Of a stretch of 24,000 bases of DNA, positions 1,158 to 21,291 are shown piece after piece. Both the position numbers and the translations under genes were made by a program. The notes below the pieces were generated by a model, which worked only from the letters and a program-made list of their open reading frames with translations, did not search any database and was not told where the DNA came from. Numbering within the stretch: the stretch's first letter is position 1; each line of letters opens with the position of its first letter. The DNA is from an uncultured bacterium (GTDB taxonomy: Bacteria; Planctomycetota; Phycisphaerae; Phycisphaerales; SM1A02), in assembly GCA_903891095.1 (NCBI GenBank), contig CAITDI010000057.1:14329-38328 (forward strand), read 5' to 3'.

Positions 1158-1649
1158 TCACTCGAACAGCTGCCGCTGGTCCTTCACGTCCTTCGGGGAC
1201 TCCTGGACCGCCTTCACTTCGGCGGCGATGTCCTCGATCGTGCGGAAATCCTCGTGCTCGCTCGCAAAGCGGATGTAGGCGATGTCGTCGATCGCCCGCA
1301 GCCGCGTGGCCACGCGCCGGCCGATCTCGACCGACGGAACCTCGCGCTCGAACTCGCGGTTGAGCTCGTCCTCGATCTCGCGCACGATCGCGGCCTTGGT
1401 GTCCTCGTCGATCGGCCGCTTGCCGCAGGCCGCGACGATGCCGCGCATGACATTGGCGGGATTGAACGGCACGCGCGTGCCGTCGCGCTTGACCACGACC
1501 AGCTTGTCGGCGCGCTCGAAGCGCTCGTAGGTCGTGAACCGCCGCTTGCACTGGTTGCACTCGCGCCTGCGCCGGACGGCGGCGCCACCGTCGGCCTCGC
1601 GGCTGTCGATCACGCTGTCATCGTCGGCCTTGCAGAATGGGCAAATCAT
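1158..1649 (-). CDS. nrdR: NrdR transcriptional repressor (zinc ribbon + ATP-cone)
   Basis: Track ORF of 163 aa. MICPFCKADDDSVIDSR...RRRRECNQCKRRFTTYE is the NrdR CxxC...CxxC zinc ribbon. It is followed by the ATP-cone (VVKRDGTRVPFNPANVMRGI...IAYIRFASEH). Confidence 0.95.
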   Translation of the reverse strand: MICPFCKADDDSVIDSREADGGAAVRRRRECNQCKRRFTTYERFERADKLVVVKRDGTRVPFNPANVMRGIVAACGKRPIDEDTKAAIVREIEDELNREFEREVPSVEIGRRVATRLRAIDDIAYIRFASEHEDFRTIEDIAAEVKAVQESPKDVKDQRQLFE

Positions 1650-1710
1650 CGCGCGGGTCGAATCCTACCGCGCACCGCCGCCGCCGCGCGGCAGTTACAC
1701 TCGCAAATCT

Positions 1711-3888
1711 ATGGTTCGCATCACCCTGCCTGACGGCTCCGTGAAGGAATTCGCCTCCGCCCCCACCGCCGGAGAGGTCGCAGCGTCGATCGGCGCCGGT
1801 CTCGCCAAGAGCGCGCTCGGCGCCCGTGTTTCCATCGGAGGCGCGAACAGCGAACTCGTCGACCTCGCGCACCGCATCCACTCCGACGCGCAGGTCGCGA
1901 TCGTCACCGCGAAGAACCGCGACGGCACGGTGAGCCCCGACGCGCTCTACCTGCTGCGCCACTCGTGCGCGCACATCATGGCCGAGGCGATCCAGCGGCT
2001 CTACCCGGGCGTGCAGCTCGTGTACGGCCCGCCGCTCGAGACGAACTTCTACTACGACATGCTCTTCCCCGATGGAAAGATCATGTCCGCCGACGACTTC
2101 GAGAAGGTCGAGGCCGAGATGGCCAAGATCGTCGCGGAAAACCGCGCCTTCACGCGCTACGAGCTCCCCGTCGCCGAGGGCATGAAGAAGCTCCAGGGCG
2201 AAGGCTCGAAGTTCAAGCTCGACAACGCGCAGCGCGCCGTCGAGGCCGGCTCCGCGACGCTCTCGTGGTACGCCACCGGCGAACCCGGCAAGAACTGGGA
2301 AGACCTCTGTCGCGGCCCGCATGTCCCCGCGACCGGCAAGGTCGGCGCGTTCAAAGTGCTCTCGCTCGCATCGAGCTACTGGAAGGGCGACGAGAAGCTC
2401 GACCGACTCACGCGCGTCTACGGCACCGCCTTCGCCACCAAGGAAGAGCTCGAGCAGTACACCCGCCTGCAGGAAGAAGCGAAGAAGCGCGACCACCGCA
2501 CGCTCGGCAAGCAGCTGCGCCTGTTCCACATCGACGAGATGGTCGGCCAGGGCCTGATCCTCTGGACGCCCAAGGGCTCGGTCGTCCGCAACGAGCTGCA
2601 GAACTTCATCGGCGCCGAGCTCCGCAAGCAGGGCTACCACCAGGTCTACACGCCGCACATCGGCAAGCTCGACCTGTACAAGACCAGCGGCCACTTCCCG
2701 TACTACAAGGAATCGCAGTTCCCCGCGATCGTCGAGAACGACGAGCTCGCCGAGCTGTGCGTCTCCGGCTGCTCGTGCGCCGAGCTGACCGCGCGCCTGG
2801 ACGGCGTTTCTGCGCAGTTTGCCCGCGATCTCAACGCGCGCACGGGTCGCGAGGTCATCGGCCAGGACAAGGTGATGGACGCCGACAAGCTCGTCGGCGG
2901 CTTCCTCCTCAAGCCGATGAACTGCCCGCACCACGCGAAGATCTTCGCGAGCGAGCCGCACAGCTACCGCGACATGCCCGTGCGCCTCGCCGAGTTCGGC
3001 ACGGTCTACCGCTGGGAGCAGTCGGGCGAGCTCAACGGCATGACGCGCGTGCGCGGATTCACGCAGGACGACGCGCATCTCTTCGTGCGCGAGGACCAGG
3101 TCGCCGAGGAAGTCCTCGGCTGCCTCTCGCTCGTCAAGATCATCTTCGCCACGCTCGGCATGAACGACTACCGCGTGCGCGTCGGCCTGCGTGATCCCGA
3201 CGGCACCAAGTACGTCGGCGATCCCGCCAACTGGGACAAGGCTGAAAGCGCCTGCCGCGACGCGGCCAAGACGCTCGGCGTGCCCTTCAGCGAGGAGCCC
3301 GGCGAAGCAGCGTTCTACGGCCCGAAGATCGACTTCGTCGTCAAGGACGTCATCGGCCGCTCGTGGCAGCTCGGCACCGTGCAGGTCGACTACAACCTGC
3401 CGATCCGCTTCGACCTCTCGTACAACGGGCAGGACAACAAGCAGCACCGCCCCGTGATGATCCACCGCGCGCCGTTCGGCTCGATGGAGCGATTCTGCGG
3501 CGTGCTGATCGAGCACTTCGCGGGCGCGTTCCCCTGCTGGCTCAACCCCGAGCAGGTGCGCGTGCTCCCGATCAGCGAGAAGAGCGCGGGCTACGCCGAC
3601 GAGCTCGTCGGCGCGCTCAAGTCGCGCGGCGTGCGCGCCACCGTCGACCACTCGAACGACCGCGTGCAGGCGAAGATCAAGGTCGCCGCCGAGGAGAAGA
3701 TCCCGTACATGGCGGTCGTCGGACCGCGCGATGCGGAGAACCGCGTCGTCAGCGTGCGCGCGCGCGGCGTCGAGGCGAACCTCGGCGAAATGCCGTTCGA
3801 CGCGTTTGTCTCGGGAATCGCAGCGGAAATCGAGCAGCGGCTGCTTTCGGGCGCGCCGGGGACCGTGCAGGCGAGCTTCGCGAAGTAA
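1711..3888 (+). CDS. thrS: threonine--tRNA ligase
   Basis: Internal ATG (1711) of track ORF 1534..3888. MVRITLPDGSVKEF is the TGS-domain start, followed by HSCAHIMAEA (second additional domain), KPMNCPHH, FTQDDAHLF and HRAPFGSMERF class II motifs, then a C-terminal anticodon-binding domain. The upstream 59 codons overlap nrdR antisense. Confidence 0.95.
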   Translation: MVRITLPDGSVKEFASAPTAGEVAASIGAGLAKSALGARVSIGGANSELVDLAHRIHSDAQVAIVTAKNRDGTVSPDALYLLRHSCAHIMAEAIQRLYPGVQLVYGPPLETNFYYDMLFPDGKIMSADDFEKVEAEMAKIVAENRAFTRYELPVAEGMKKLQGEGSKFKLDNAQRAVEAGSATLSWYATGEPGKNWEDLCRGPHVPATGKVGAFKVLSLASSYWKGDEKLDRLTRVYGTAFATKEELEQYTRLQEEAKKRDHRTLGKQLRLFHIDEMVGQGLILWTPKGSVVRNELQNFIGAELRKQGYHQVYTPHIGKLDLYKTSGHFPYYKESQFPAIVENDELAELCVSGCSCAELTARLDGVSAQFARDLNARTGREVIGQDKVMDADKLVGGFLLKPMNCPHHAKIFASEPHSYRDMPVRLAEFGTVYRWEQSGELNGMTRVRGFTQDDAHLFVREDQVAEEVLGCLSLVKIIFATLGMNDYRVRVGLRDPDGTKYVGDPANWDKAESACRDAAKTLGVPFSEEPGEAAFYGPKIDFVVKDVIGRSWQLGTVQVDYNLPIRFDLSYNGQDNKQHRPVMIHRAPFGSMERFCGVLIEHFAGAFPCWLNPEQVRVLPISEKSAGYADELVGALKSRGVRATVDHSNDRVQAKIKVAAEEKIPYMAVVGPRDAENRVVSVRARGVEANLGEMPFDAFVSGIAAEIEQRLLSGAPGTVQASFAK

Positions 3889-3927: not shown

Positions 3928-4518
3928 ATGTCGTTCGCCACAGTGTTTGCCGCCGGACTCTTGATGCAGTCCACCCCGCCCGCACAGGAAACCGCTCCCG
4001 TCGCGCCGCCCGCCGCAACTGCACCTGCACCCGCGACGCCCGCCGACAACACGCCGCCCGAGCTGCGCCGCAAGAGCTTCAACGTCGACAAGGACGGCGT
4101 CGCGCTGCAGGGCTACGACCCGATCTCGTATCTCGACAAGTCGGGCCCGAAGCAAGGCAAGCCAGAGCACGCCTTCGCCTACCGCGGCGTCACGTACCGC
4201 TTCGCCACCGCGGAAAACAAGGCGAAATTCGAGGCCGAGCCCGCGAAGTACGAGCCGCCCTACGGCGGCTGGTGCGCGTGGGCCGTGATCGACGGCGACA
4301 AGGTCGAGATCGACCCGATGAACTACGAGGTCATCGACGGCAAGGTCTACCTCTTCTACAAGGGCTGGCTCGGCAACGCGAAGAAGAAGTGGGACGACAA
4401 GCTCAAGACCGACGGCGCGAAGAAGACCGTGACCGCGGCGGACGGCGGCTGGAGGAAGCTCGCCGAGGCCGACAAGACCGCATTCGACGCCGAGCACAAG
4501 AAGCCCGCGGGACGCTGA
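3928..4518 (+). CDS. secreted YHS-domain protein (Cys form of the YHS-domain (seleno)protein family)
   Basis: AGGAG at 3918-3922, 5 nt before the ATG. Hydrophobic N-terminus, then a Pro/Ala-rich linker. Next comes LQGYDPISYLD...AFAYRGVTYRFATAENKAKFEAEPAKYEPPYGGWCAWAV...DGKVYLF, which I recognise as the YHS-type domain with the GG-x-C motif. Confidence 0.8.
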   Translation: MSFATVFAAGLLMQSTPPAQETAPVAPPAATAPAPATPADNTPPELRRKSFNVDKDGVALQGYDPISYLDKSGPKQGKPEHAFAYRGVTYRFATAENKAKFEAEPAKYEPPYGGWCAWAVIDGDKVEIDPMNYEVIDGKVYLFYKGWLGNAKKKWDDKLKTDGAKKTVTAADGGWRKLAEADKTAFDAEHKKPAGR

Positions 4519-4548: not shown

Positions 4549-5313
4549 TCATGCAGGCTCGTTCAGCTCGGTCACGCGGATGACCGCGAGACCGTCGACG
4601 ACATCCACGGCGCCGCGCACGCGCACGGGGCGCGCGATCCACGGCGCCAGCACATCGAACGGCAACGGCGCACCGTCCTGCCCCACCACGAGCGCACGCC
4701 GCATCGAGCCATCGGGCGCGCGGCACACGATCGACGGCGGAATGCCGCCGCGGATGCACAGCGTCGCGCAATCGCGGTGCGTCTTGCCGTCGCCCGGCTT
4801 CATCACGCCGAGCCAGCACTTGCTGTCGACGATCTCGCCGACGAGCTCGACGGTGCCGATGCGATCGAACTGCCCCGCTGGCGGAAGCACGCCGCCGACC
4901 GCGATCGGCTCGTCCTCCGAAAGTTCCAGCATGCGCTGCCCGTCGCGCGTGATCAGGTAGCCGCGCGCGCGCACCGCCGTGCGGGTTCCATCGGTCTTCG
5001 CGAACGGCGCGACGCGCGCGTCGGCGCCGTGCTTGCCCATCTCGACCAGCAGCACGCGCTCGGCCGTGCCGTCGCCGCGCGCGACGCGCAGCATCGGGAA
5101 CGGCTTCGCGATCACTTCGCCCTCGAGCGTCACCTCGTGACCCGTGTCCCACACGCCTCGGCCGGTGGCGGGCGCAGCCGCGTTGAAGACGACCGCCGCC
5201 GCGAGCGCCAGGATCACCGTCGCGATCACGAACACGCGCGTCCACCGCACATCGCGCGCGGGCGTCGGCAGGTAGCCGACGAAGAAGTCGCCTGAATCGC
5301 CTTCAGCGCTCAT
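4549..5313 (-). CDS. membrane-anchored extracytoplasmic protein with a four-Cys cluster, function unknown
   Basis: C-terminal 254 codons of track ORF 4549..5874, starting at ATG 5313..5311, which overlaps the upstream stop (ATGA). Basic N-terminus (ARDVRWTR), one TM helix (VFVIATVILALAAAVVF) and a ~210-aa soluble domain containing KCWLGVMKPGDGKTHRDCATLCIRGGIPPSIVC. I could not assign a family. Confidence 0.7.
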   Translation of the reverse strand: MSAEGDSGDFFVGYLPTPARDVRWTRVFVIATVILALAAAVVFNAAAPATGRGVWDTGHEVTLEGEVIAKPFPMLRVARGDGTAERVLLVEMGKHGADARVAPFAKTDGTRTAVRARGYLITRDGQRMLELSEDEPIAVGGVLPPAGQFDRIGTVELVGEIVDSKCWLGVMKPGDGKTHRDCATLCIRGGIPPSIVCRAPDGSMRRALVVGQDGAPLPFDVLAPWIARPVRVRGAVDVVDGLAVIRVTELNEPA

Positions 5314-6359
5314 GCCGCGCCTCCCTCGCCCGCGGCGCATGGCGGCACGGGCGTTCCCGGCGCGTTCGGCGTCGGACTGACGAAGATCGTGCGGCCCTCG
5401 ATGCGCAGTTCGTAGGTCGGAATCCGCTCGGTGAACGGCGGCGGCGATTGCCCGCTCTCGGCGAGGTACTGGTAGCCGTGCCACGGGCAGGTCACGCAGC
5501 CGTCGACGATGCGGCCCTCGGCAAGCGGCCCGCCCTGGTGCGCGCACACGCCGGAAATCGCGCTGAATCCGCGCGCATGGCGGAACACCGCGACCGTGCG
5601 CGCGGGACCGAGCTTGACCGCCTTCGCGCGGCCTTCCTCGATCTCGCCGACTTCGCCAACGCGTACCCAGCCGTCGGCCGCAAGTGCGCGCGCGCGGCGA
5701 TCCACGCGGAACTCCTTCACGCCCGCCGCGAGATGGATGCCCACGATCCAAGCCGTGCCGGCTGCGGTCATCCACGCGTAGCCCGACCAGATCGCATCCT
5801 GCAGCGAACCGAACGCGACATGCGCCACGATCAGCGCGAACGCGAGGTACACGCACAGGTGCAGCGCCTTCCACACGCGCGGCGACAGGTTGCGCAGCCA
5901 GAAGTCGTGGCTGGTCGCGGCCATCGCGAACAGGATCACCAACGCCGCGAGTCCGAGCGGCTGGAACGGGAACTGCGCGGCGCCCTCGAACGGCGTGCTG
6001 CTCGAGAGGATGCTCGTCAGCGGATCAAGCACGCCAAAGCCGTGGTACCAGACGGTCGCCAGCAGCGCGTGCACCAGCGCCATCAGGAACATCGTCACGC
6101 CCAGATGCCTGCGGTTGTAGAGCAGCGGCGCCATGCGCGGCGTGCATCGCGCCAACGGTCCGATCGAGAGGATCAGCACGAGCAGCAGCACCGCGCCGGT
6201 GCCGAACGCGCGCATCACGAGCACGATCGGACTCACCTCGAACGCCGCAGTCGCGGCAAGCACGAAGCCGCCCAGATACACCGCGATCGCGAGCGCAAGC
6301 CGGCGGTCGTAGGCCTTCTTCGCGGCATTCCATTGGACTGCTTGATAGGACACGCTCAT
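5310..6359 (-). CDS. ferric-reductase-like (FRD, putative di-heme b) six-TM domain fused to a C-terminal Rieske [2Fe-2S] domain
   Basis: Internal ATG (6359..6357) of track ORF 5310..6533, product MSVSYQAVQWN.... About six hydrophobic helices, with His pairs HLGVTMFLMALVH and HLCVYLAFALIVAH plus ATSHDFW, typical of FRD/MsrQ-like proteins. The C-terminus carries the Rieske motif CAHQGGPLAEGRIVDGCVTCPWHGYQY (CxH-x16-CxxH). Confidence 0.8.
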   Translation of the reverse strand: MSVSYQAVQWNAAKKAYDRRLALAIAVYLGGFVLAATAAFEVSPIVLVMRAFGTGAVLLLVLILSIGPLARCTPRMAPLLYNRRHLGVTMFLMALVHALLATVWYHGFGVLDPLTSILSSSTPFEGAAQFPFQPLGLAALVILFAMAATSHDFWLRNLSPRVWKALHLCVYLAFALIVAHVAFGSLQDAIWSGYAWMTAAGTAWIVGIHLAAGVKEFRVDRRARALAADGWVRVGEVGEIEEGRAKAVKLGPARTVAVFRHARGFSAISGVCAHQGGPLAEGRIVDGCVTCPWHGYQYLAESGQSPPPFTERIPTYELRIEGRTIFVSPTPNAPGTPVPPCAAGEGGAA

Positions 6360-6781
6360 GGCCGCGCACTCCGCTCCACCGCTGGTTCGGGCAGGCGCCC
6401 CGCATCGCGCGTCTCGGGCAACCGCTCGGCCCGCGAGCGAATCGCGACCAGCAGCACCAGCGCAACCAGCGGTGCCAGCACGATCCACGCAAGGAGCGCG
6501 CGCGAGCGGAGCCGCTCCGACGCGGGCTGCCAACGCTCGGTCCGATCACCAGGGACCTCCGCGGCGTCGCCTGCATCGCGAGCCGCAGCCCGCCACCAGC
6601 GCACCATCAGCAGCGGCCACAGCAACGCCGCGCCCGGCGCCACCAGCAGCCTGAATCCGCGCGTCGCGTGCCGCGCGACCGGATCGACCACGGCCACTCC
6701 GCGCCACGCGAACGCAGCGGCAAACAGCACGCCGATCACGGCGTAGATCATCACGGTCTCGACGATGAACTCGGTCAGCAC
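6356..6781 (-). CDS. small membrane protein (about 3 TM helices), function unknown
   Basis: 3' part of track ORF 6356..6874. The stop overlaps the downstream ATG (ATGA at 6359..6356). The start is uncertain: GTG at 6781..6779 (VLTEFIVETVMIYAVIG) or ATG at 6751..6749 (MIYAVIGVLFAAAFAW). No family recognised. Confidence 0.5.
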   Translation of the reverse strand: MLTEFIVETVMIYAVIGVLFAAAFAWRGVAVVDPVARHATRGFRLLVAPGAALLWPLLMVRWWRAAARDAGDAAEVPGDRTERWQPASERLRSRALLAWIVLAPLVALVLLVAIRSRAERLPETRDAGRLPEPAVERSARP

Positions 6782-6843
6782 GGCGGGAAGATACAGCGAA
6801 CAATCAGGGCAGGATTCCACTATCCTCGCCGAACGGATTGAAC

Positions 6844-7368
6844 ATGACCGCTTCCTCGCCGACATCCGACCCACGCATCGCGCTCGCCAACGCGCTGGAC
6901 GCTCTCGCCACTCTCGCCGCGAAGGCCGACGACGCCGTCTACGCGGGCGGACTGGCCTACGGCTTCCATAGCCCGCTGGGTGCGCACTTCCGCCACTGCA
7001 TCGACCATGTCGACGCGCTGCTCAACGGCGTCGCGTCGGGCGAGATCAGCTACGACCGCCGCGAGCGCGGCACCGCGATCGAGAAGGACCGCGCCGCGGG
7101 ACTCAGCGCCGCCGCCGAACGCGCCGCTCTGGTGCGGGCGATCAGCGACACGATGCTCGACTCGTCGATCTCCGTGGCCGCGATGGTCACGCCCGATGCG
7201 CCCGAGGTCCGCTTCGACTCCACGGTCGCGCGCGAGGTGCTCTACGTGTTCCACCACACCGTCCACCACACCGCGCTGATGTCCGCGCAGGCGACCAACA
7301 TGGGAATCCAAGCCGACCCGAAGGCCGGCCGCGCCCCCGCGACGCTTGCCAACGACGCCCGGCATTGA
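6844..7368 (+). CDS. DinB/YfiT-like four-helix-bundle putative metalloenzyme
   Basis: Track ORF 6838..7368 begins at TTG 6838, and the first ATG is at 6844. His-rich motifs GAHFRHCIDHVD (N-terminal third) and VFHHTVHHTALM (C-terminal) have the spacing of the DinB-superfamily metal triad. The assignment is by eye only. Confidence 0.55.
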   Translation: MTASSPTSDPRIALANALDALATLAAKADDAVYAGGLAYGFHSPLGAHFRHCIDHVDALLNGVASGEISYDRRERGTAIEKDRAAGLSAAAERAALVRAISDTMLDSSISVAAMVTPDAPEVRFDSTVAREVLYVFHHTVHHTALMSAQATNMGIQADPKAGRAPATLANDARH

Positions 7369-7377
7369 CGCGTTGCC

Positions 7378-8121
7378 ATGTGCACCCTTTCGATCATCGC
7401 GCCCGCGCCGCGCAGCTTCGTCCTCGCGTTCAACCGCGATGAGAAGCCCACTCGCGCCGAAACCGATCCGCGCGTGCATACCGGTCGCCGCACCTGGATC
7501 ATGCCGGGCGACACGCAGGCGGGCGGCTCGTGGATCGCGGTCAACGACGCGGGCATCGCGCTCGCGGTCCTCAATCGCAACGACGGTCCGCCGCCCGCCG
7601 ATGCGCCCGCCGATCTGGGCGCGAGCCGCGGGACCCTGGTGCCGGCGCTGGCCGAATGCGGTTCGCTCGACGAGATCCGCTCGGGCGCCGAGCGCATCGC
7701 CGCGGGGATTTCGCGCGCGTTCCGCCTGATCGCGACCGACGGCACGCGCGTGCTTGAGGTGGTCGGCGGGGACCACCGCGCCGACTGCGCGCTCGAGCCG
7801 CTCGTTCGACCGTTCCTGCGCGCGTCGAGCGGACTCGGCGACGCGCTCGTGCGCGAGCCGCGCGGCGAACTCTTCGCGGCGATCGTCGCGCGCGCGCCCG
7901 ACGAGGACCTCGCCGCGGCCCAGCACCACTTCCACCGCCACCGCTGGAACGACCGCCGCCACCTGAGCGTGCTCATGGACCGCGAGGGCGCGCGGACCGT
8001 CAGCATCACCACCATCATCGTCGATGACGCGCGGGTGCAGCTCGTGCACGCGCGGCGCGGCGACGGTGGAGGCCTTCCCGAGAGCCTCCCCGAACTCCGG
8101 CTCGAGCTCGACCGCCGTTGA
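7378..8121 (+). CDS. NRDE-family (TANGO2-like) protein with N-terminal Cys
   Basis: MCTLSIIAPAPRSFVLAFNRDEKPTR carries the Met-Cys start and the eponymous NRDE motif of this family. The gene starts 9 nt after the DinB-like stop. Confidence 0.85.
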   Translation: MCTLSIIAPAPRSFVLAFNRDEKPTRAETDPRVHTGRRTWIMPGDTQAGGSWIAVNDAGIALAVLNRNDGPPPADAPADLGASRGTLVPALAECGSLDEIRSGAERIAAGISRAFRLIATDGTRVLEVVGGDHRADCALEPLVRPFLRASSGLGDALVREPRGELFAAIVARAPDEDLAAAQHHFHRHRWNDRRHLSVLMDREGARTVSITTIIVDDARVQLVHARRGDGGGLPESLPELRLELDRR

Positions 8122-9797
8122 GCGACCCCGCCACCACGCTCCCCGGCGGACTCGAGATCGCCGCCACGATGCCGCCGATCGTGCAGGCGCTCGCGCTGAT
8201 GGTGGGCACATTCATCCTGGAGGACACGACCGCCATCACCGCGGGCCTGCTCGCACACGCCGGCGTCGTGTCGCTTTCCACCGCGATGCTGGGGACGGGA
8301 ATCGGCATCTTTCTCGGCGATCTCGGCCTGTACGCGCTCGGCGCCGCCGCCGCACGCGGCGCGCGCGGGACGGGTTGGGTCCGTCGCAGGCTTCCCGAAG
8401 CGCGGCTGCGCACCGTGGCCGACTGGTTCGGCCGTTCGGGTTGGAAGGCGATCGTCTTCTCGCGATTCGTGTCGGGCTCGCGGCTTCCCATCTATCTCGG
8501 CGCCGGCTTCGTGGGCGCGGGCTTCGCGCGCTTCGCGCTCTGGACCTTCGTGGCCGTGCTGGCGTGGACGCCGCTGGTGGTCGGCGTCACGGCGCTGCTC
8601 GGAAGCTCCGTCTCCAGCATCGCACGCGACCACATCGGCACCAGCCCCGCAGCCTGGATCGCCGTCGCCATCGCGGTGATCGTGCTCATGCAGGGCGCGA
8701 TCCTGGCGGTGGCCCGCCGCCGCGCGATCCTCGTTGCGCTCGATCGCGCGCGTCGATTCGAGTTCTGGCCGAACTGGGCGATCTACGCACCGATGCTCCC
8801 CTGCTTCGCGTGGAATGCCCTGCGTTTCGGCTTCGCGCGCACGCTCACGGTCGTCAATCCGTGCTGGCCCGACTCGGGCGCCGTCGGCGAGAGCAAGCAG
8901 GCGGGCCTCGAGGCCTTCGACAGCGAGTTCGTGTCGCCGAGTTTCCTCCTGGCACCGCCCGAGGGCGGCGCGTTCACGCGCGACCAGATCGACGCCGCCG
9001 TCGCCACGCTCGGGAGCAAGGGGTGGCCCTACCCCGTCATCGTCAAGCCCGATGCGGGACAGCGCGGCCTCGGCGTCAAGCTCGTGCGCGGCGAGCCCGC
9101 GCTGCGCGAGCTCCTCGGGTCGGCACGGGCGCCGGTCATCGTTCAGCGCTTCGAGGCGGGCGCATGCGAGGTCGGACTCTTCTTCATCCGCGATCCGGGC
9201 ACCGACGGCAGGTTGTTCTCGATCTGCGACAAGCGCTTCCCCCACGCCGCGGGTGACGGTCGCTCGACGCTTGCCGAACTCATCGAGCGCGATCCGCGCC
9301 TGCGGCTCCAGGCGCGGGTCTTCCTCGAGCGGTGGGCGGGCCAGCTCGACCGGGTGCTCGCCGCGGGCGAATCACTCCGCCTCGCAAACGCTGGCAACCA
9401 CGCCCAAGGGTGCCTGTTCGTCGACGGCGAGCGCCTTCGAACGCCGAAACTCGAGGCGTGGGTGCGCCGGGCCTGTTCGACCGCGCGCGGCTTCAACTAC
9501 GGCCGACTGGATGTGCGCTTTCCAGACGAGGCGGCATGCCGCCGCGGCGAGGGTGGCGTGATCCTCGAAGCGAACGGCATCACCAGCGAGTCGACCAACA
9601 TGTACGACCCGAAGCTGGGCGCCCTGCGCGCGTGGAAGCTCATGCACGCGCACTGGCGGGCCGCGTTCCGCATCGGCGCGGCGAATCGTGCCAAGGCTGT
9701 TGCAGGAAGCGATCCGGCGGGCATGACGCTGCGCGAGGTGCTCCGCCGTCGGCGGGAATGGCTCGAACGCGCGGACACCCGCGCCATCGCCGACTAG
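8118..9797 (+). CDS. DedA/VTT (SNARE-associated) membrane domain fused to an ATP-grasp ligase domain
   Basis: TTG 8118 overlaps the NRDE stop (TTGA). An alternative ATG is at 8169. The N-terminal ~215 aa are hydrophobic with the DedA motifs ILEDTTAITAGLL and FSRFVSGSRLPIYLGAGF. The C-terminal ~330 aa carry ATP-grasp motifs: PVIVKPDAGQRGLGVKLV, VIVQRFEAGACEVGLFF, GDGRSTLAELIERDPR, GNHAQG and GRLDVRF...VILEANGITSESTNMYDP. Confidence 0.8.
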   Translation: MSDPATTLPGGLEIAATMPPIVQALALMVGTFILEDTTAITAGLLAHAGVVSLSTAMLGTGIGIFLGDLGLYALGAAAARGARGTGWVRRRLPEARLRTVADWFGRSGWKAIVFSRFVSGSRLPIYLGAGFVGAGFARFALWTFVAVLAWTPLVVGVTALLGSSVSSIARDHIGTSPAAWIAVAIAVIVLMQGAILAVARRRAILVALDRARRFEFWPNWAIYAPMLPCFAWNALRFGFARTLTVVNPCWPDSGAVGESKQAGLEAFDSEFVSPSFLLAPPEGGAFTRDQIDAAVATLGSKGWPYPVIVKPDAGQRGLGVKLVRGEPALRELLGSARAPVIVQRFEAGACEVGLFFIRDPGTDGRLFSICDKRFPHAAGDGRSTLAELIERDPRLRLQARVFLERWAGQLDRVLAAGESLRLANAGNHAQGCLFVDGERLRTPKLEAWVRRACSTARGFNYGRLDVRFPDEAACRRGEGGVILEANGITSESTNMYDPKLGALRAWKLMHAHWRAAFRIGAANRAKAVAGSDPAGMTLREVLRRRREWLERADTRAIAD

Positions 9798-9860
9798 ACG
9801 CACGCGGGATGCGACCTCCTGCAAGCCGATCGCGACGCAGCTCGACCATCGCGCCCTCCC

Positions 9861-9990
9861 CGCGACTTCGGTCCGCAACTCGAGGTCGCGACTCGGGGCC
9901 GCGACTCGGGGCCGCGACTCGGGGCCGCGACTCGGGGCCGCATAAGTCGGGGCCGCAAGTCGAGGCCGCAAGTCGGGGCCGCAAGTCCCC
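9861..9990. repeat. 13-bp direct tandem repeat, ~10 copies (consensus CGCGACTCGGGGC)
   Basis: Read directly. There are four perfect copies at 9887-9938. They are flanked by degenerate copies (CGCGACTTCGGTC, CGCAACTCGAGGT, CGCATAAGTCGGGGC, CGCAAGTCGAGGC, CGCAAGTCGGGGC, CGCAAGTCCCCCG). The array starts 64 nt after the stop at 9797. Confidence 0.9.
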
Positions 9991-10367
9991 CGAATGCACG
10001 CCCGCTCTCGCGGGCCCAAACGGAGTCCACAAACCCACGGGTCTGCAGGGATTCTTACTCGGGGCGCACCCCCGATTCGGCGAGCCCGTTGGCTCGATCG
10101 AACGCGGCGGCCCGCTCCCTCTCGCATCCATGCGGCGAAGCCGAGGTCGCAGCCAGTCAAGCAGTTACGCCCGGAGGTCGAACACGGATCACGGGGACTC
10201 TTCATCCGCGCCATTCGAAGGGCAAAGTTCGCGCCGCGATTTGGTTCGTTTTCCATTTGCACTCTCAGGTTCCCGCTGTAACTTTCACCCTGCCGTTGGG
10301 TTTCGAGGCACCGGATACGTTTCCGTTGGTCGAGCCTGAGGACAATTGGACCTTCGAGGAGACTGGC

Positions 10368-12446
10368 ATGGCTCTCAAGAGCACTATCAGCATCGCTTCC
10401 GGCATGACGGCGCTTGGCGCGCTGCTTGTCGCGAACACTGGCGCTTTCGCGCAGTGCACCGTTACCACCGCGACCAACTACACCCAGGTTGACACCGGCT
10501 GCCCCGTCACTGGCGTCACCGACACCAACGGCGGTTGCAACACCACCCCGACTTCGTGGCAGGCCACTGGCACGCTCACCCGCGCCAACCCCAGCTTCAC
10601 GATCTACGGTTCGTGCGGCAGCAACCTCGACGGCACCAGCCGCGACCTCGACTGGTACAGCTTCGACGTCGCTGAGCCGTGCTTCGTCAACGTCAACATC
10701 CAGACCAAGGACCCGGCGACGGGCATCGGCTCGACGAACTTCACCGTGTTCTTCTCGAACACCACCCAGTTCGCCAACTGCGACGCGACCGGCTTCGACT
10801 ACACCGCTTGCCCGATCAACTACGCGGAGCAGGGCGTCAGCGCCGGCACCTGCGGCCTGATCGTCACCACGCCGTTCACCCCGGTCAACAGCTGCAACAC
10901 CGAGTACACGATCACCGTCACGGCTCGCTACTCGACGTTCACCGCCTGCGGTACCCCCGCTGGTGGTGACTGCGGTCACGCCACCCCGGCCGTCGCTGGC
11001 TGCCAGGACGTGACCTGCTGCGACACCATCTGCACGGTCAACCCGCTCTGCTGCGACATCGCGTGGGATCAGTCCTGCGCCGACGCCGCACAGCAGCCGA
11101 CCTCGCTCGGTGGTTGCGGCGTGTTCGTCTACAACTGCACCAACGTTCCGGGCGCCGCGGCCAATGACTGCGCGATCCACGCTCTTTCGACCAACCTCAA
11201 CTCGCTCACCACGTGGAACAACGCCAGCTGCAACACCGACGGCCCGAACAACGGCCAGTGCGGCAGCACCACGCTCCACGACGTGTGGTTCATGACCCTC
11301 GCCCCGTCGAACGGCAACATGACCCTCACCGCGAACTCGCCGACCCAGGACATCGTCCTCTCGGTCTACAACAACGGCACGACTTCGACCGTTGACGGCA
11401 CCCAGCTCGCCAACAACTTCGTCGGCTGCCTTGACAACGCTGGTATCGGTGGCGAAGCCGTCACCCTCACCGGCTGCACGGCTGGCACCTACTACCTCTG
11501 GCGCATCGGCCAGTGGGACCAGGACACCGGCACCGTCGGCGCTGGCGATGTCACCTTCACCTTTGCCCAGGTCGTGTTTGACTCGGGCGTCCACGCTGCG
11601 ATCTGCAGCAACGGCACCGCCACCAACCTCGGTCTCTCCAGCGGCGCCATCGCCGCCGGCAGCCCGCAGCGCTGGCTCGCGGCTCCGTTCACCGTCGCTG
11701 ATCCGGACGGCTCTGGCTCGGGCACCTCGTGGACCGTCAGCCAGGTCATCCCCGAAGGCTTCTACCCGGCCGGCTCCACCAACACCAACATGAACTACAT
11801 CGTGTGGAACCGCAGCGCCACGAACGCTGCTCCGGACTACGCGACCGGTCAGGTTGTGTCGGGTCAGATCGTTGCTCCGGCCACCCTCGGCGGCAACGGC
11901 GAGTGCTACTTCAACACCAACTTCACGCTCGCCAAGGGCGACTACTACCTCACCGTGTTCGCGTCGGCTCCGGGCAACCCCTGCCGCGCCAACGACGGTC
12001 AGGCCGTGCTCTCGAACTACGCGTGGTACGTCGGCGCGCCGACGGGCATCGCGCTCAGCGACGCGACGGGCTTCTACGCCTGGCGTGGCGCGACCCAGCC
12101 CGGCTCTGGTCCGGCCACTGAAGTCGTCATCGCCGGCACGACCACCGCTTGCTCGGGTGGTACGGGTGGCTTCGCGATCTATCGCAGCCTCACCGGTACC
12201 TACGTCAACTGCACCAGCGGCGTGCTCGAAGCCAACGTCTACTCGCCGTCGATGCACATCCTCGGCAGCCCGATCGTTGGCTCCACCTGCCCGACCGACC
12301 TCAACGGTGACAACGCCACCGGCGCGGCCGACCTCTCCATCCTCCTCAGCGGATGGGGTACCGGCTCGCCCGACCTCAACGGCGACGGCGTGGTTGGCTC
12401 TGCCGACCTCTCCATCCTGCTCAACGGTTGGGGCGCCTGCCCGTAA
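10368..12446 (+). CDS. secreted Cys-rich protein with beta-sandwich-like modules and two C-terminal dockerin-type repeats
   Basis: Internal ATG (10368) of track ORF 10089..12446, preceded by GAGGAG. Signal peptide MALKSTISIASGMTALGALLVANTGAFAQ. DLDWYSFDV is a pre-peptidase-C-terminal-like motif. A small disulfide-rich module reads GDCGHATPAVAGCQDVTCCDTICTVNPLCCDIAWDQSCADAA. The C-terminus is DLNGDNATGAADLSILLSGWG / DLNGDGVVGSADLSILLNGWG. Confidence 0.8.
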   Translation: MALKSTISIASGMTALGALLVANTGAFAQCTVTTATNYTQVDTGCPVTGVTDTNGGCNTTPTSWQATGTLTRANPSFTIYGSCGSNLDGTSRDLDWYSFDVAEPCFVNVNIQTKDPATGIGSTNFTVFFSNTTQFANCDATGFDYTACPINYAEQGVSAGTCGLIVTTPFTPVNSCNTEYTITVTARYSTFTACGTPAGGDCGHATPAVAGCQDVTCCDTICTVNPLCCDIAWDQSCADAAQQPTSLGGCGVFVYNCTNVPGAAANDCAIHALSTNLNSLTTWNNASCNTDGPNNGQCGSTTLHDVWFMTLAPSNGNMTLTANSPTQDIVLSVYNNGTTSTVDGTQLANNFVGCLDNAGIGGEAVTLTGCTAGTYYLWRIGQWDQDTGTVGAGDVTFTFAQVVFDSGVHAAICSNGTATNLGLSSGAIAAGSPQRWLAAPFTVADPDGSGSGTSWTVSQVIPEGFYPAGSTNTNMNYIVWNRSATNAAPDYATGQVVSGQIVAPATLGGNGECYFNTNFTLAKGDYYLTVFASAPGNPCRANDGQAVLSNYAWYVGAPTGIALSDATGFYAWRGATQPGSGPATEVVIAGTTTACSGGTGGFAIYRSLTGTYVNCTSGVLEANVYSPSMHILGSPIVGSTCPTDLNGDNATGAADLSILLSGWGTGSPDLNGDGVVGSADLSILLNGWGACP

Positions 12447-12520: not shown

Positions 12521-12558
12521 CGCCCCCCTCGGCTTCGGCCGAGGGGGGCGTTGCTTTT
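12521..12558 (+). terminator. rho-independent terminator
   Basis: Perfect 13-bp stem CGCCCCCCTCGGC / GCCGAGGGGGGCG with a TTCG tetraloop (12534-12537), followed by TTGCTTTT. It lies 75 nt after the stop at 12446. Confidence 0.85.
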
Positions 12559-12706
12559 GGCGAGTGCTCGAGCTTCGCGCGCAACCCTTTGCCATGCTTG
12601 CAGGAATGGAGAAAGATCGTTGGCGAACCGCCGCGTTCGACCGATGATGGTTGACCACCTTCGCTGCGCCCAATCGGGTCGCCGCCAAGTCAGTATCGAG
12701 GACCTC

Positions 12707-15046
12707 ATGCATCACGCCGTGCTCCGCATCCGCTCGCTCGCTTCCGCAGTCGCCTTCGTGTCGATCGCAATGATCGCGCTCGCCTCGCCTGCCGCTCACG
12801 CCCAGCAAGGCAAGGACATCACGCTCCGCCTCGAGCGCGACAACACCGTCGTCGCCGAGAGCTGCACGGTCGAGACTCCCGCGTTCGCCCTCGCCGACGC
12901 CGACGGCAACGGCGTGATCCAGATCAAGGGTCGCGCGGACGGCACGCGCATCGTCGTCGACCTCGGCGGCAACATGCTGCTGGGCGGCGTGGGCACGCCC
13001 GAGCGCCTCACGGGCATCGGCATCGCCATCACAGGCCGCAACGTGACGCTGCGCCACGGTCGCCTCAAGGGCTTCAAGGTCGCCATCAGCGCACAGGACT
13101 GCGACGGTCTCGTGCTCGAGGACCTCGACACCAGCGACAACTACGCGCAGCTCCTGCGCTCCACGCCGTGGGCCGAGGACGAGGCCGACTGGCTCTTCCC
13201 CCACAAGAACGACAACGACGAGTGGGCCAAGCAGCACGGCGCGGGCATCTCGGTCAGCCGCGCCAAGGGCGTGTCGATCCACAACATCTTCACCCGCCAC
13301 ACGCAGAACGGCATCCTGCTCGACCGCGTCACCGACTCGCAGGTCTACGACAACGACTGCTCGTTCCTCTCGGGCTGGGGCCTCGCCATGTGGCGCTCTT
13401 CGGGCAACACGGTCTGCCGCAACAGCTTTGACTTCTGCCTCCGCGGCTACTCGCACGGCAAGTACAACCGCGGCCAGGACTCCGCGGGCATCCTGATGTT
13501 CGAGCAGTGCTCCGACAACATGATCGCGCTCAACAGCGCGACCCACTGCGGCGACGGCATCTTCGGCTTCGCCGGCAACGAGGCGCTCGGCGAGACGCCT
13601 TCGCCGTCGTCCAAGATCGACCTCGACCAGAACGGCAAGGAGAAGGATCCCGGCGCCCGCTACCGCGGCCGCGGCTGCAACGGCAACCGCTTCATCGGCA
13701 ACGACCTCTCGTTCGCCGCGGCGCACGGCCTCGAGATGACGTTCAGCTTTGGCAATGTGATCGCCCGCAACAAGTTCGACTCGAACGCCATCTGCGGCAT
13801 CTGGGGCGGCTACGCCCGCGAGACCGTGATCGTCGGCAACCAGTTCAACAGCAACGGTCGCCTCATGACCGGCTCCGAGCGCGGCGCGATCAACATGGAG
13901 CACGCGCAGCGCTGCGTCGTGGCCAACAACAACTTCAAGCGCGACATCGTGGGCGTCGCGATCTGGAGCGATGAAGACGCGGGCATCGCCAAGCTGCCGT
14001 GGGCCAAGGCCAACGGCATGAACGCGAGCGCCAATCGCATCGTCGGCAATCGCTTGATCGACTGCGACACCGGCATCCTGCTCACCGGCGCAAAGGACAC
14101 GATCCTCGCCGGCAACACGCTCGAGGGCGAGGGCAAGCTGCTCGAGGAGAAGGACACCGCGGGCACCGTCCAGAAGGACGCCGCACCCGAGCGCGACGGA
14201 CCGTCCGACGCCGACTTCGACGCGATGCTCGCCAAGCTGCCCGGCACCCGCAAGGCGGTCGGCGCCCGCGAGAACCTCCGCGGCCGCGACCACAACGTCG
14301 TCCTCAACTACGGGCCGTACGAGTGGCTCAAGCCGATCGTCGTCCGCATCACCCCGAGCCAGCACGAGGGTCGCTTCCAGGCCTACGGCTTCCCGGCCCG
14401 ACTCGACGGCGTCAGCGTCGTGGGCAACGGCCCGATCATGGCGGGCATGGACTTCGGCACGGGCATGTCGATGGTGACCGCCAACATCCGCGGCTACCCC
14501 GCGCCGTACTACCTGCAGGTGCGCGACGTCTTCCACAACGAGGCGCGCGTCCTCGCCATCGCGGCGTCCGCGGACTGGGAGACCAAGGTCTTCGCGCTGG
14601 ATTCCGCCGACAAGAAGCTCGACGCGGTCCCCTCGCTCGAGGCCTTCCACGCCCTCGCCGAGGCCGAGCCGCGCACGTCGGTGGTGTTCGAGATCGACTG
14701 GAACTTCGGCGGCAACGCCCCGCAGGCGACCATCGACCACCCGGATATCAAGCAGATGACGCTCCCCGCCGACCGCTTCGGCATCGTGAGCAAGACCAAG
14801 CTCAACTTCCAGCCCGGCCGCTGGAAGGTCAACATCGAGAGCGACGACGGCGTGCGACTGCTGATCGACGGCAAGGTCGCGATCGACCGCTGGAACATCC
14901 ACAAGCCCACCGTCGACAGCTACGAGTGGGAAGTCACCGAGCGCAAGGACAGCGTCTTTGAGCTCGAGTACTTTGAAAATGTCGGCCCCGCGCGCCTGCG
15001 CGTGTGGTTCGACGCGATCGATCCCAAGGTCCTGGGCGCCAACTGA
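12707..15046 (+). CDS. secreted right-handed parallel beta-helix protein with a C-terminal PA14 domain
   Basis: Internal ATG (12707) of track ORF 12551..15046. Signal peptide MHHAVLRIRSLASAVAFVSIAMIALASPAAHAQ. Repeated beta-helix turns (NRFIGNDLSFAAAHGLE, NVIARNKFDSNAICGIWG, VIVGNQFNSNG, RIVGNRLIDCDTGILL, ILAGNTLEG). The C-terminal PA14-like segment reads GRWKVNIESDDGVRLLIDGKVAIDRW...FELEYFENVGPARLRVWF. Confidence 0.8.
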   Translation: MHHAVLRIRSLASAVAFVSIAMIALASPAAHAQQGKDITLRLERDNTVVAESCTVETPAFALADADGNGVIQIKGRADGTRIVVDLGGNMLLGGVGTPERLTGIGIAITGRNVTLRHGRLKGFKVAISAQDCDGLVLEDLDTSDNYAQLLRSTPWAEDEADWLFPHKNDNDEWAKQHGAGISVSRAKGVSIHNIFTRHTQNGILLDRVTDSQVYDNDCSFLSGWGLAMWRSSGNTVCRNSFDFCLRGYSHGKYNRGQDSAGILMFEQCSDNMIALNSATHCGDGIFGFAGNEALGETPSPSSKIDLDQNGKEKDPGARYRGRGCNGNRFIGNDLSFAAAHGLEMTFSFGNVIARNKFDSNAICGIWGGYARETVIVGNQFNSNGRLMTGSERGAINMEHAQRCVVANNNFKRDIVGVAIWSDEDAGIAKLPWAKANGMNASANRIVGNRLIDCDTGILLTGAKDTILAGNTLEGEGKLLEEKDTAGTVQKDAAPERDGPSDADFDAMLAKLPGTRKAVGARENLRGRDHNVVLNYGPYEWLKPIVVRITPSQHEGRFQAYGFPARLDGVSVVGNGPIMAGMDFGTGMSMVTANIRGYPAPYYLQVRDVFHNEARVLAIAASADWETKVFALDSADKKLDAVPSLEAFHALAEAEPRTSVVFEIDWNFGGNAPQATIDHPDIKQMTLPADRFGIVSKTKLNFQPGRWKVNIESDDGVRLLIDGKVAIDRWNIHKPTVDSYEWEVTERKDSVFELEYFENVGPARLRVWFDAIDPKVLGAN

Positions 15047-16352: not shown

Positions 16353-16799
16353 ATGAAGTCCCGCCGCCACGCCGCCATCCGCAGCCTGATCTCCTCGAGC
16401 GAGATCTACAGCCAGCACGAGCTGGCGCAGCTGCTCGCGCGCGAAGGCATCGAGGCGACGCAGGCCACGCTCTCGCGCGACCTCTCCGAGCTCGGCGTGC
16501 TCAAGGGCCCCGACGGCTACCAGCTCCCCGGCGCGGCCGTCGCCGCTCCCGCGCCCGACGCGGCGCTCGCGCGCGTCCTTCGCCGCGAGCTCATCTCGAT
16601 CACCATGGGCGGCACGCTCGTCGTGCTCAAGACGCCCACCGGCCACGGCAACGCGCTCGCGATCGAACTCGACCGCATGCGCATGCAGGGCGTCCTCGGC
16701 ACCATCGCCGGCGACGACACCGTGTTCCTCGCCGCAAGCACCCCGCTCGCCGCGCGCCGCATCGTCAAGGAATTGCGCACGCTCGCGCAACTCGCCTGA
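16353..16799 (+). CDS. argR: arginine repressor
   Basis: Internal ATG (16353) of track ORF 15996..16799. MKSRRHAAIRSLISSSEIYSQHELAQLLAREGIEATQATLSRDLSELGVLK is the ArgR winged-helix domain. GTIAGDDTVFL is the C-terminal oligomerisation/arginine-binding motif. Confidence 0.9.
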   Translation: MKSRRHAAIRSLISSSEIYSQHELAQLLAREGIEATQATLSRDLSELGVLKGPDGYQLPGAAVAAPAPDAALARVLRRELISITMGGTLVVLKTPTGHGNALAIELDRMRMQGVLGTIAGDDTVFLAASTPLAARRIVKELRTLAQLA

Positions 16800-16857
16800 T
16801 CCCCAACGCACGACTCGCCGCGGGAGGCCGTCCCCCTCCCGCGCTGGAATCACTTCA

Positions 16858-17946: not shown

Positions 17947-18782
17947 GCAAGTCCCAGCATCAGCCTCCGCACACCGCACCCCTCGTCGTCAAGATCGGCG
18001 GCGCGCTCCTCGAGAACGCCGACCAGCACGCCGACGCGTTCGCCGGCCTCATCGCGCTCCACCGCGCGCATGCGGGCGGCATCATCCTCGTCCACGGCGG
18101 AGGCGCGCAGGTCGACAAGCAGCTCAAGCTCGTCGGCATCGAGACGCCGCGCATCGAAGGCATCCGCGTCACCACGCGCGAGGCGATCGACCAGGTCGTC
18201 GGCGTGCTCGCGGGCAGCGCGCATGTGCGACTGCTCGGCATCCTCTCCGCGCAAGGCGCGCGCGTCGTCGGCCTCACGCTGTCCGACGGCGGGCTCTGCG
18301 AGTGCCGCCACACGACCAAGTTCGCGTTCGACGCGGGCGAAGTCGGCGAGATCGTCGGCGGCGACGGCGCCGTCGCGCGCACGCTGCTTTCCGCGGGCTT
18401 CATGCCCGTCGTCAACTCGATCGGCCTCTCCGGCAAGGGCGAGCCGCTCAATGTGAACGCCGACGAAGCCGCCTGCGCCATCGCGCGCGTGGTCAACGCC
18501 GCGGGCATCGTGCTCCTCACCGATGTGCCCGGCGTGCTCGACCAGACCAAGCACCTCATCGCCGAGCTCGACGCCGCGCGCATCGATGAACTCATCGCGA
18601 GCGGCACGATCTCGGGCGGCATGATTCCCAAGGTTCGCAACGCGCTCGACGCCGCCGCGCAGGCCGGTTGCCCCGCGACCATCGCGTCGTGGCGCGATCC
18701 CGCCGCGATCGCGAACGGCTCGACCGGCACGCGCATCCTCGCGCCCATTTCCAACGCTTCCGCCCAGCCCTGCCACGCCTGA
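17943..18782 (+). CDS. argB: acetylglutamate kinase
   Basis: GTG 17943 overlaps the argC stop (GTGA). The product reads VSKSQHQPPHTAPLVVKIGGALLEN...ILVHGGGAQV...NVNADEAA...LLTDVPGV...GGMIPK, colinear with ArgB. The earlier part of track ORF 17862..18782 overlaps argC. Confidence 0.9.
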   Translation: MSKSQHQPPHTAPLVVKIGGALLENADQHADAFAGLIALHRAHAGGIILVHGGGAQVDKQLKLVGIETPRIEGIRVTTREAIDQVVGVLAGSAHVRLLGILSAQGARVVGLTLSDGGLCECRHTTKFAFDAGEVGEIVGGDGAVARTLLSAGFMPVVNSIGLSGKGEPLNVNADEAACAIARVVNAAGIVLLTDVPGVLDQTKHLIAELDAARIDELIASGTISGGMIPKVRNALDAAAQAGCPATIASWRDPAAIANGSTGTRILAPISNASAQPCHA

Positions 18783-18815
18783 AGGGGCGCGACCGATCCC
18801 GAGGCCATCGCTCAC

Positions 18816-19823: not shown

Positions 19824-19887
19824 CCAGCCGCCACACGAACGCCCGCAACATTCAGCCAGCAAGCACCAGAGAAAGCCAGAGCAATCC

Positions 19888-21204: not shown

Positions 21205-21220
21205 TTCGCACCAACCGACC

Positions 21221-21253: not shown

Positions 21254-21291
21254 CCCGCTCCCGACCGCACTCAGACAGAAAGCACACACGG

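Follow-up and report, generated by a model that had tools for sequence, protein, structure and literature searches.

Three adjoining genes in the genome of an uncultured planctomycete, which encode a DinB-superfamily protein, an NRDE/TANGO2-family protein and a fusion of a DedA (VTT) membrane domain with an ATP-grasp ligase, appear to form a conserved accessory module of acyloxyacyl aminolipid metabolism, that is, of lipids of the ornithine-lipid type, which the module would modify. We put the probability of this reading at roughly 0.5. The genes lie in a window of 24,000 nucleotides (nt), the whole stretch of DNA analysed here, which covers positions 14,329-38,328 (forward strand) of contig CAITDI010000057.1 (assembly GCA_903891095.1) from an SM1A02 bacterium (Planctomycetota; Phycisphaerales). 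Relatives of the module in other genomes stand beside ornithine-lipid synthases of every known kind, three in all, so its most likely role is to modify and move membrane lipids that contain amino acids. Carboxylate amidation as the specific step within this reading is perhaps half as likely. A first-pass annotation of the same DNA had proposed a membrane-associated amide-ligation pathway and called its function entirely hypothetical; the operon structure and the general idea are supported here, and the latter judgement is superseded by the lipid substrate class to which the aminolipid gene clusters of other genomes point.

All three genes are on the plus strand. The DinB gene (6844..7368) encodes 174 amino acids (aa) from an ATG, and the list of open reading frames (ORFs) starts it at a TTG at 6838. 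It is followed by the NRDE gene (7378..8121, 247 aa), whose product begins Met-Cys, and by the fusion gene (8118..9797, 559 aa), whose TTG start overlaps the NRDE stop. Direct reading of the first junction (...CAT TGA cgcgttgcc ATG TGC...) gives a 9-nt gap; at the second (...CGC CGT TGA GCG...) the TTG start and the TGA stop share 4 nt, as TTGA. This tight spacing, described in the first-pass annotation, was confirmed by the junctions themselves, by an independent public gene call on an identical contig, which has the same three genes of 174, 247 and 559 aa, and by third-position G+C content, which at 0.86-0.90 in the three frames is like that of the window's other real or housekeeping genes. 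Scans of positions 6300-10400 for sigma-70-like promoters and intrinsic terminators detected none.

The arrangement is not confined to the window. Our sample of loci consists of 82, namely the best 80 of a scan plus two (L081 and L082) fetched by exact protein, and comes from Planctomycetota, Verrucomicrobiota, Acidobacteriota and Gemmatimonadota. A DinB gene adjoins the fusion gene in 65 of these loci, an NRDE gene in 58 and both in 56, always in the same direction as the fusion gene. Such an arrangement is far beyond chance, and the co-localisation of the three families in other genomes is thereby established across four phyla. In Verrucomicrobiota the order is DinB > fusion > NRDE, so the association of the trio has survived rearrangement. 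Homologues of the fusion protein number 549 in a word-indexed search, and relatives found with the motif of its linker as the search pattern occur in at least 583 species genomes. A search with the ligase domain alone, at E<=1e-30, yields 830 representatives of 50%-identity clusters. At one further locus (L085, 4316-6491) the DedA::ATP-grasp gene has no adjoining DinB or NRDE gene; a second, stand-alone VTT-domain gene lies near it, paired with a pyridine-nucleotide-disulfide oxidoreductase gene.

Gene fusions bind the parts more closely. In about 30 loci, an alpha/beta-hydrolase is fused N-terminally to the DedA::ATP-grasp protein. Two proteins combine nearly everything in one chain: P0268 (1121 aa) runs from NRDE (with an MCTVT...NRDE start) through a membrane helix, alpha/beta-hydrolase and VTT to ATP-grasp, and P0298 (about 1120 aa) has an identical architecture. 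In P0291, ATP-grasp is joined to a C-terminal alpha/beta-hydrolase without DedA. Within fused chains, NRDE sits at the extreme N-terminus only, which fits because a Cys that acts as N-terminal nucleophile (Ntn) requires the N-terminus. These Rosetta-stone fusions tie NRDE, hydrolase, DedA and ligase to a single membrane process.

The membrane half of the window's fusion protein is a VTT/DedA domain (8232..8591, plus strand, aa 39-158) whose helices run on to about aa 199. It matches PF09335 with 42.7 bits against a cut-off of 33.9, and all full-length fusion homologues among the matches listed carry this domain. DedA/VTT proteins have been proposed as lipid scramblases or flippases. Across 53 homologues, five residues of this half do not vary (E35, D36, D68, R116 and R122), and the R-x5-R spacing of R116 and R122 presumably resembles the Arg pair of Escherichia coli YqjA, a comparison of spacing alone. 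The best NCBIfam match of the DedA half is UptA (NF052604), the undecaprenyl-phosphate transporter, at a weak 35.8 bits against a cut-off of 250, and its identification as UptA was rejected on that score.

This match brings in a cell-wall alternative, in which a UptA-like DedA domain would work on polyprenyl phosphate and a ligase like D-Ala-D-Ala ligase (Ddl) or CphA would extend a lipid-linked precursor of peptidoglycan or of a glycan by an amino acid. Its attractions are that UptA is the best family for the DedA half and that D-Ala-D-Ala ligases are among the structural neighbours of the other half. The distance of the UptA score from its cut-off tells against it, as does the lack of recurrent mur, fem or glycan genes nearby, in contrast to the aminolipid genes described below, and we hold it to be very unlikely.

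Between the two halves lie linker helices (8754..8828, plus strand, aa 213-237) with the motif R-x-EFWPxWxxYxP, in which E215, W217, P225 and R236 are invariant; the structural model places helices at 219-237. The C-terminal half is an ATP-grasp carboxylate-amine ligase domain (8865..9707, plus strand, about aa 250-530) that resembles the G domain of cyanophycin synthetase. No Pfam ATP-grasp model matches this half at E<=0.01. Searched against the sequences in the PDB, the ligase half finds the cyanophycin synthetase G domain (7txv/7lg5) with E 6.8e-5 over aa 294-488, and the profile of the ligase family finds it with E 7.1e-7. The AlphaFold (AF2) model of the fusion has a pLDDT of 91.5. In Foldseek, the best match of the ligase is 7wae (1.5e-8); there are 187 PDB matches at E<=0.001, and the best 50 of the 187 are all ATP-grasp enzymes, with CphA1, CphA2, GshF, Ddl, CPS and RimK among the neighbours. 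On the strength of the model, the C-terminal half has the ATP-grasp fold. K310, D312, R316, Q343, E351, R463, D465, E484 and N486 do not vary among the 53 homologues, and in alignments they correspond to the ATP/Mg residues of CphA1.

Judged by sequence and modelled fold, the nearest solved relatives of the ligase are all amino-acid or peptide carboxylate-amine ligases. The best matches, to the cyanophycin synthetase G domain, CphA2 and RimK, have in common with it the K, D and E-x-N set and a 'GDG-ST--ELI' segment. Identity is about 19-25%, and the fusion has neither the N nor the M (Mur-ligase-like) domain of CphA; in place of the usual N-terminal subdomain it has the DedA membrane domain and the conserved EFWP linker. 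The possibility that the fusion is itself a cyanophycin synthetase (CphA1) was rejected, with 19 bits against an NCBIfam cut-off of 850 and only the G domain matched.

Because the closest of these relatives extend the C-termini of peptides, one may ask whether the ligase is a RimK-like enzyme that lengthens or tags some membrane protein or small peptide at its C-terminal end, which NRDE would then trim as a peptidase. Small conserved membrane proteins do occur in the wider cluster. These small proteins travel with a Rieske fusion protein of the neighbouring operon, not with the ligase; no precursor-peptide gene is conserved beside the ligase, and the fusions to lipid enzymes and the aminolipid neighbours would be left unexplained. 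We therefore rate the chance of peptide tagging as slight.

The NRDE protein matches the TANGO2/NRDE family PF05742 over aa 1-91, with 28.5 bits against a cut-off of 22.6, and a profile of 48 orthologues matches the human TANGO2 structures 9bwa/8sv7 with E 2.2e-7. Its AF2 model (pLDDT 94.1, pTM 0.92) finds TANGO2 as the best Foldseek match (4e-12, TM-score 0.68), followed by CV2077; 3gvz is matched with 9e-11 and a TM-score of 0.71, and next come isopenicillin-N acyltransferase, bile-salt hydrolases and penicillin V acylase. According to the model, the protein has the alpha-beta-beta-alpha sandwich fold of the Cys-Ntn hydrolases. A Met-Cys start is found in 55 of 59 orthologues; truncation or a wrongly set start accounts for the remaining four. 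The alignment has invariant columns C2, R20, D21, E22, R26, W52, N66, R84, S151, R162 and R202, and N19 is conserved at 90% or more. Amide hydrolase or acyltransferase activity is a prediction from sequence and model. The first-pass annotation had taken Met-Cys as the mark of an Ntn-type amidohydrolase, as in EgtC. The first part holds, given the TANGO2/Cys-Ntn fold and the invariant Cys2; membership of the EgtC family does not, as NRDE is not a class-II glutaminase.

With human TANGO2 and with Cys-Ntn amidases of lipid-like amides (bile-salt hydrolase, penicillin V acylase, isopenicillin-N acyltransferase, NAAA and acid ceramidase), the NRDE protein has in common the alpha-beta-beta-alpha fold, a Cys directly after Met, the N-R-D-E motif and a downstream Asn. 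Identity to human TANGO2 is about 16%, and the sequence-level match is limited to the first ~90 to ~125 residues. In a 2026 structure paper, the substrate of human TANGO2 was inferred to be amphipathic and probably well above 500 Da, with no substrate known for any family member (PMC13044924).

The DinB-like protein is a borderline case by itself, with 25.8 bits against the cut-off of 24.8 for DinB_2 (PF12867). At the level of the family, the assignment is solid by sequence comparison, because 41 of 42 orthologues match DinB_2; 28 also match the DinB model. Against the PDB, the window sequence alone has no sequence match, and the family profile has a weak one to the DinB-like protein 3dka (E 0.042). 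H51, D54, H138, H141 and H142 are invariant in the 42 orthologues, as are R50, R73, R75, R130, E131 and Y70. H51, H138 and H142, with H141 and D54, form a putative metal site that fits the usual pattern of helix 1/2 plus H-x3-H. Taken together, the profile and fold searches upheld the three domain assignments of the first-pass annotation, and the catalytic residues do not vary among orthologues, be it Cys2 with the NRDE motif, the His triad of DinB, or the Lys, Asp and E-x-N of ATP-grasp.

It is important to note that this set of folds was at first compared with the logic of ergothioneine and low-molecular-weight-thiol pathways. In such an alternative, the module would make or use a soluble thiol and its membrane tether would be incidental. 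The DinB superfamily does include thiol S-transferases, one of the 42 orthologues weakly matches the mycothiol-S-transferase (MST) family, and redox genes (DoxX, AhpC/SelL-related and YHS selenoprotein family) are frequent neighbours. The window's DinB protein is a single domain of 174 aa without the FGE-sulfatase domain of EgtB (Pfam), and in none of the loci examined did we find an EgtB-type FGE domain, an EgtD-like methyltransferase, or genes for thiol biosynthesis or for Cys- or His-derived building blocks. NRDE is not EgtC, and the DedA and hydrolase fusions and the aminolipid synthases favour a lipid substrate. The parallel to ergothioneine was therefore not borne out, and a soluble thiol pathway has in our view a low probability.

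The substrate class is suggested by the neighbours of the module. The ORFs of all loci were clustered and the families then mapped locus by locus. An aminolipid synthase lies beside the module, within the sequence flanks, in 40 of 82 loci, and it is of three kinds. Firstly, a pair of OlsB-like and OlsA-like genes is near the module in 22 loci, and in 19 of them it is directly upstream of DinB and co-directional; the OlsB-like N-acyltransferase matches PF13444 with 103 bits and has OlsB as its best NCBIfam match (151 bits), and the OlsA-like O-acyltransferase has OlsA (136 bits). Secondly, an OlsF-like bifunctional synthase lies just downstream, in convergent orientation, in 13 loci. Four tested genes (L010, L026, L030 and L036) match the OlsF model with 352-403 bits; the match of L010 falls into two stretches, and the other three cover nearly the whole model. 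Thirdly, OlsH (GH3) and an OlsI-like alpha/beta-hydrolase are beside the module in 5 loci. In L081 (Pirellulales), one operon reads DinB > NRDE > DedA::ATP-grasp > OlsI > OlsH; its OlsH scores 683.9 bits, above the cut-off of 620, and its OlsI 350.7 against 385. The other four GH3 genes score 357-380 bits and have OlsH as their sole match. OlsH and OlsI make up a third ornithine-lipid pathway, demonstrated in 2025 by experiments on the planctomycete Singulisphaera (PMC12493201).

The occurrence of three synthase systems without homology to one another, each in an arrangement of its own, suggests independent recruitment and is hard to explain except by functional coupling. The OlsH/OlsI, OlsBA and OlsF synthases accompany the module, and many genomes have them in one operon with it. 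They have no homology to its three genes in the window, and the module would act after or beside lipid synthesis. Long in-frame N-terminal extensions of the fusion gene in L062, L066 and L069 were considered as fusions to OlsA and this was rejected, since Pfam shows only an alpha/beta-hydrolase domain in all three and the OlsA-like match of L066 is in another reading frame.

On this basis, we propose the following scheme. The DedA half would anchor the enzyme in the inner membrane and present or flip the lipid, and the cytoplasmic ATP-grasp half would activate the head group, an N-acylated amino acid, by phosphorylating its free alpha-carboxylate and then ligate an amine to this carboxylate, giving a head-group-extended lipid; the amine may be an amino acid or a taurine-like compound, which is a guess. 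Amidation of an aminolipid head group is proposed because the solved relatives of the ligase activate alpha-carboxylates and ornithine lipid exposes one at the membrane. With its N-terminal Cys, NRDE would hydrolyse or transfer a lipid amide; in the manner of bile-salt hydrolase, NAAA and acid ceramidase, it would either take off the head-group extension or edit the N-acyl bond. The DinB metalloprotein might carry out a further, metal-dependent head-group step or a thiol-dependent transfer (again a guess). The alpha/beta-hydrolase, fused or adjacent in many genomes, would add or remove an ester-linked acyl chain.

Such a design has a counterpart in MprF, an aminoacyl-phosphatidylglycerol synthase fused to a flippase domain. 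Both would follow a common logic, with a lipid head-group enzyme and a translocating membrane domain in one polypeptide. The folds are unrelated, and whereas MprF draws on aminoacyl-tRNA to esterify a phospholipid, the fusion would form an amide, presumably on an aminolipid. We rate the module as a probable lipid head-group modification system with an MprF-like build of enzyme and translocator. Each of the three proteins falls into a known superfamily, and none belongs to a characterised family.

The chemistry expected of the ligase is also known from nature. Cerilipin formation in Gluconobacter/Gluconacetobacter cerinus involves an ATP-dependent amide on the head-group carboxylate of ornithine lipid. 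The transfer of taurine to this carboxyl group depends on ATP, and no gene has been assigned to it (PMC12971839). The cerilipin enzyme was partly characterised in the 1970s, without a sequence, and the module loci here come from four phyla, Acetobacteraceae not being among the groups examined.

Alternatively, the module might itself be a fourth, self-contained aminolipid synthase, in which the ATP-grasp enzyme makes an N-acyl amino acid from a fatty acyl-phosphate and an amino acid, the alpha/beta-hydrolase attaches another acyl chain to it, and DedA serves as the exporter. A set of ATP-dependent ligase and alpha/beta-hydrolase would mirror OlsH/OlsI. ATP-grasp enzymes can make N-acyl amino acids, the acyl-histidines of Legionella being a precedent cited in PMC11631085, and in the window, in Gemmata and in L084 the module has no synthase nearby. 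Yet a complete synthase stands beside the module in 40 loci, often in the same operon, so that sequential steps fit better than redundancy; the closest relatives of the ligase activate alpha-carboxylates of amino acids or peptides and not fatty acids, and the window protein lacks the alpha/beta-hydrolase domain. We consider this possibility unlikely, with a better chance than any of the other alternatives.

Several observations weigh against aminolipid modification as we propose it. There is no homologue of OlsB, OlsA, OlsF, OlsH or OlsI in the 24-kb window, and the closest relatives of its module (L001-L009) have no aminolipid synthase in the available flanks. In 18 of 49 loci with ample flanks, both the synthase and the redox genes described below are absent. 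Most of the OlsB-, OlsA- and OlsF-like neighbours score below the NCBI equivalog cut-offs, so the head group may contain an amino acid other than ornithine. OlsI is absent from the best 25 NCBIfam families of two fused alpha/beta-hydrolase domains, and a Kyte-Doolittle scan settled neither the membrane topology nor the side on which the fused alpha/beta-hydrolase lies. Finally, both the choice of amine partner and the part given to DinB are guesswork. As for previous work, the first-pass annotation knew of no described pathway with this gene set, and this stands for the searchable literature, which has no paper describing the module, no relevant link of DedA to ATP-grasp, and no link of DedA to ornithine lipid, of TANGO2 to DedA, or of NRDE/TANGO2 to aminolipids; the neighbours of OlsH and OlsI that form the module are unmentioned in PMC12493201.

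The second group of partners is concerned with redox reactions. In the window, a divergent intergenic region of 62 base pairs (6782..6843) separates the module from an operon on the minus strand (4549-6781), in which three genes overlap by 4 nt at each junction. The first encodes a small membrane protein of 141 aa (6356..6781), homologues of which are beside the module in 23 of 80 loci. The second encodes the Rieske fusion protein mentioned above (5310..6359, 349 aa), a transmembrane domain of the ferric-reductase type (MsrQ-like, haem b) joined to a Rieske [2Fe-2S] domain, with 54.9 bits for Ferric_reduct and 51.8 bits for Rieske in Pfam; it is found beside the module in 25 of 80 loci, or 27 of 82 when L081 and L082 are counted. 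The third (4549..5313), taken from the public gene call, encodes a 254-aa protein with an N-terminal membrane helix and a Cys-rich C-terminal part (CWLG...C..LC); it has no match in Pfam, NCBIfam or the PDB, and in 24 of 80 loci a conserved counterpart accompanies the Rieske fusion. Beyond the operon, on the plus strand (3928..4518), lies the gene of a secreted member of the YHS-domain (seleno)protein family (196 aa; NCBIfam NF041384, 109.8 bits against a cut-off of 70). In other genomes, a YHS gene is directly upstream of DoxX/DinB in 20 loci, and redox genes with a DoxX_2 gene precede DinB in the same direction in L013, L018, L025, L030 and others. The redox genes, the olsB/olsA-like genes and the module make up one co-directional string in L038, L039, L051, L058, L063, L066 and L069. 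The redox genes look like a putative transmembrane electron-transfer set, which accompanies the module in about a third of loci.

The frequent presence of a haem-b-type membrane protein could suggest that the TANGO2 homologue serves as a haem chaperone for the ferric-reductase/Rieske protein and that the rest is unrelated, in line with the proposal of haem trafficking by TANGO2, which is mentioned and questioned in PMC13044924. Against this, NRDE is present in 58 loci and the Rieske fusion in 27, and it is with the hydrolase-DedA-ligase chain, not with a haem protein, that NRDE is fused. Furthermore, the invariant Cys2 and the NRDE catalytic set argue for an enzyme, and a crystal study showed haem binding by TANGO2 to be nonspecific. 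Of the alternatives considered, haem handling is the least probable.

A different way to bring the redox genes and the aminolipid genes together is a membrane-anchored redox thiol or selenol. The ligase would add a cysteine- or cysteamine-like amine to an aminolipid, DinB would act as S-transferase, much as in the use of bacillithiol and mycothiol, NRDE would be the amidase of the conjugates, and the redox neighbours (DoxX, the YHS (seleno)protein, the AhpC/SelL-related protein and, as transmembrane electron conduit, the Rieske/ferric-reductase protein) would recycle the lipid across the membrane. Thiol logic and lipid context would come together in such a system, which, if real, would mean a new class of lipid cofactor; we regard it as a long shot.

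Regulatory and metal-related genes also occur around the module. A sigma-54 enhancer-binding activator (GAF/PAS) and an extracytoplasmic function (ECF) sigma factor are beside it in Gemmata, L081, L022, L024 and L034. In Gemmata obscuriglobus (L083; CP042911, 6217-13107), these two genes are divergently upstream of DoxX-DinB-NRDE-fusion, and the same arrangement is seen in L081 (1023-5385) and likewise in L022, L024 and L034. An AhpC/redoxin (SelL-related) gene follows or is close by. The Gemmata obscuriglobus locus, in which GobsT_10630 is the NRDE gene, is likely a dedicated stress regulon, in a planctomycete that is cultured and genetically tractable. Other cultured carriers of the module are Pelagicoccus sp. 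SDUM812005 (L074) and Phycisphaeraceae D3-23 (L082). In the window's 62-bp intergenic region, no convincing sigma-54 box was seen by eye. At L084 (4385-6607), a heavy-metal P-type ATPase of the CopA type with an HMA domain is directly upstream of DinB-NRDE-fusion and co-directional; this ATPase and the YHS neighbours elsewhere are hints of a copper or metal-stress connection. Taken together, the Rieske fusion, DoxX, YHS, AhpC-like, CopA-type ATPase, ECF and sigma-54 partners suggest use of the module under envelope, redox or metal stress.

The rest of the window is ordinary chromosome. Its G+C content is about 69%, ranging from 0.63 to 0.73, and a scan of base composition gave no sign of a mobile element; PADLOC, which covers anti-phage defence, had no match among six proteins of the cluster. 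The housekeeping genes frr, nrdR and thrS lie upstream (1158-3888). Downstream of the module, on the plus strand, are genes of two large secreted proteins. The first (10089-12446), a Thr/Cys-rich ORF of 785 aa for which the public gene call gives 692 aa, matches nothing in Pfam and carries a C-terminal dockerin-like repeat, 'DLNGDG...ADLSILL'; the second (12551-15046) belongs to the NosD/right-handed beta-helix proteins and has PA14 as its C-terminal domain. An arginine/ornithine biosynthesis cluster follows about 7 kb downstream of the module (16390-24000, plus strand), with argC, ornithine carbamoyltransferase, argG, argH with a C-terminal GNAT acetyltransferase fusion, and argJ, to which the public gene call adds an arginine repressor and an amino-acid kinase. 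The nearness of this cluster to the module may be coincidence.

If the proposed function is correct, the module names candidate genes for three open problems, namely the amidation enzyme, the flippase and the TANGO2 substrate class, which gives it practical interest. The ligase family would be the first concrete candidate for the ATP-dependent amidation of the ornithine-lipid head group, for which the gene has been missing since the 1970s (PMC12971839). The two reviews of aminolipids that were consulted mention no flippase for ornithine lipids, though these accumulate in the outer membrane, and the DedA domain, fused to an enzyme of lipid clusters, is a candidate for this role. Human TANGO2 is mutated in severe metabolic disease; the context of its bacterial homologues, in aminolipid operons and fused to lipid enzymes, suggests a class of substrates, N-acyl lipid amides, and makes simple bacterial assays possible. 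Since the module is widespread in phyla that are abundant in soil and freshwater, environmental lipidomes may commonly contain a lipid with an unknown head-group modification.

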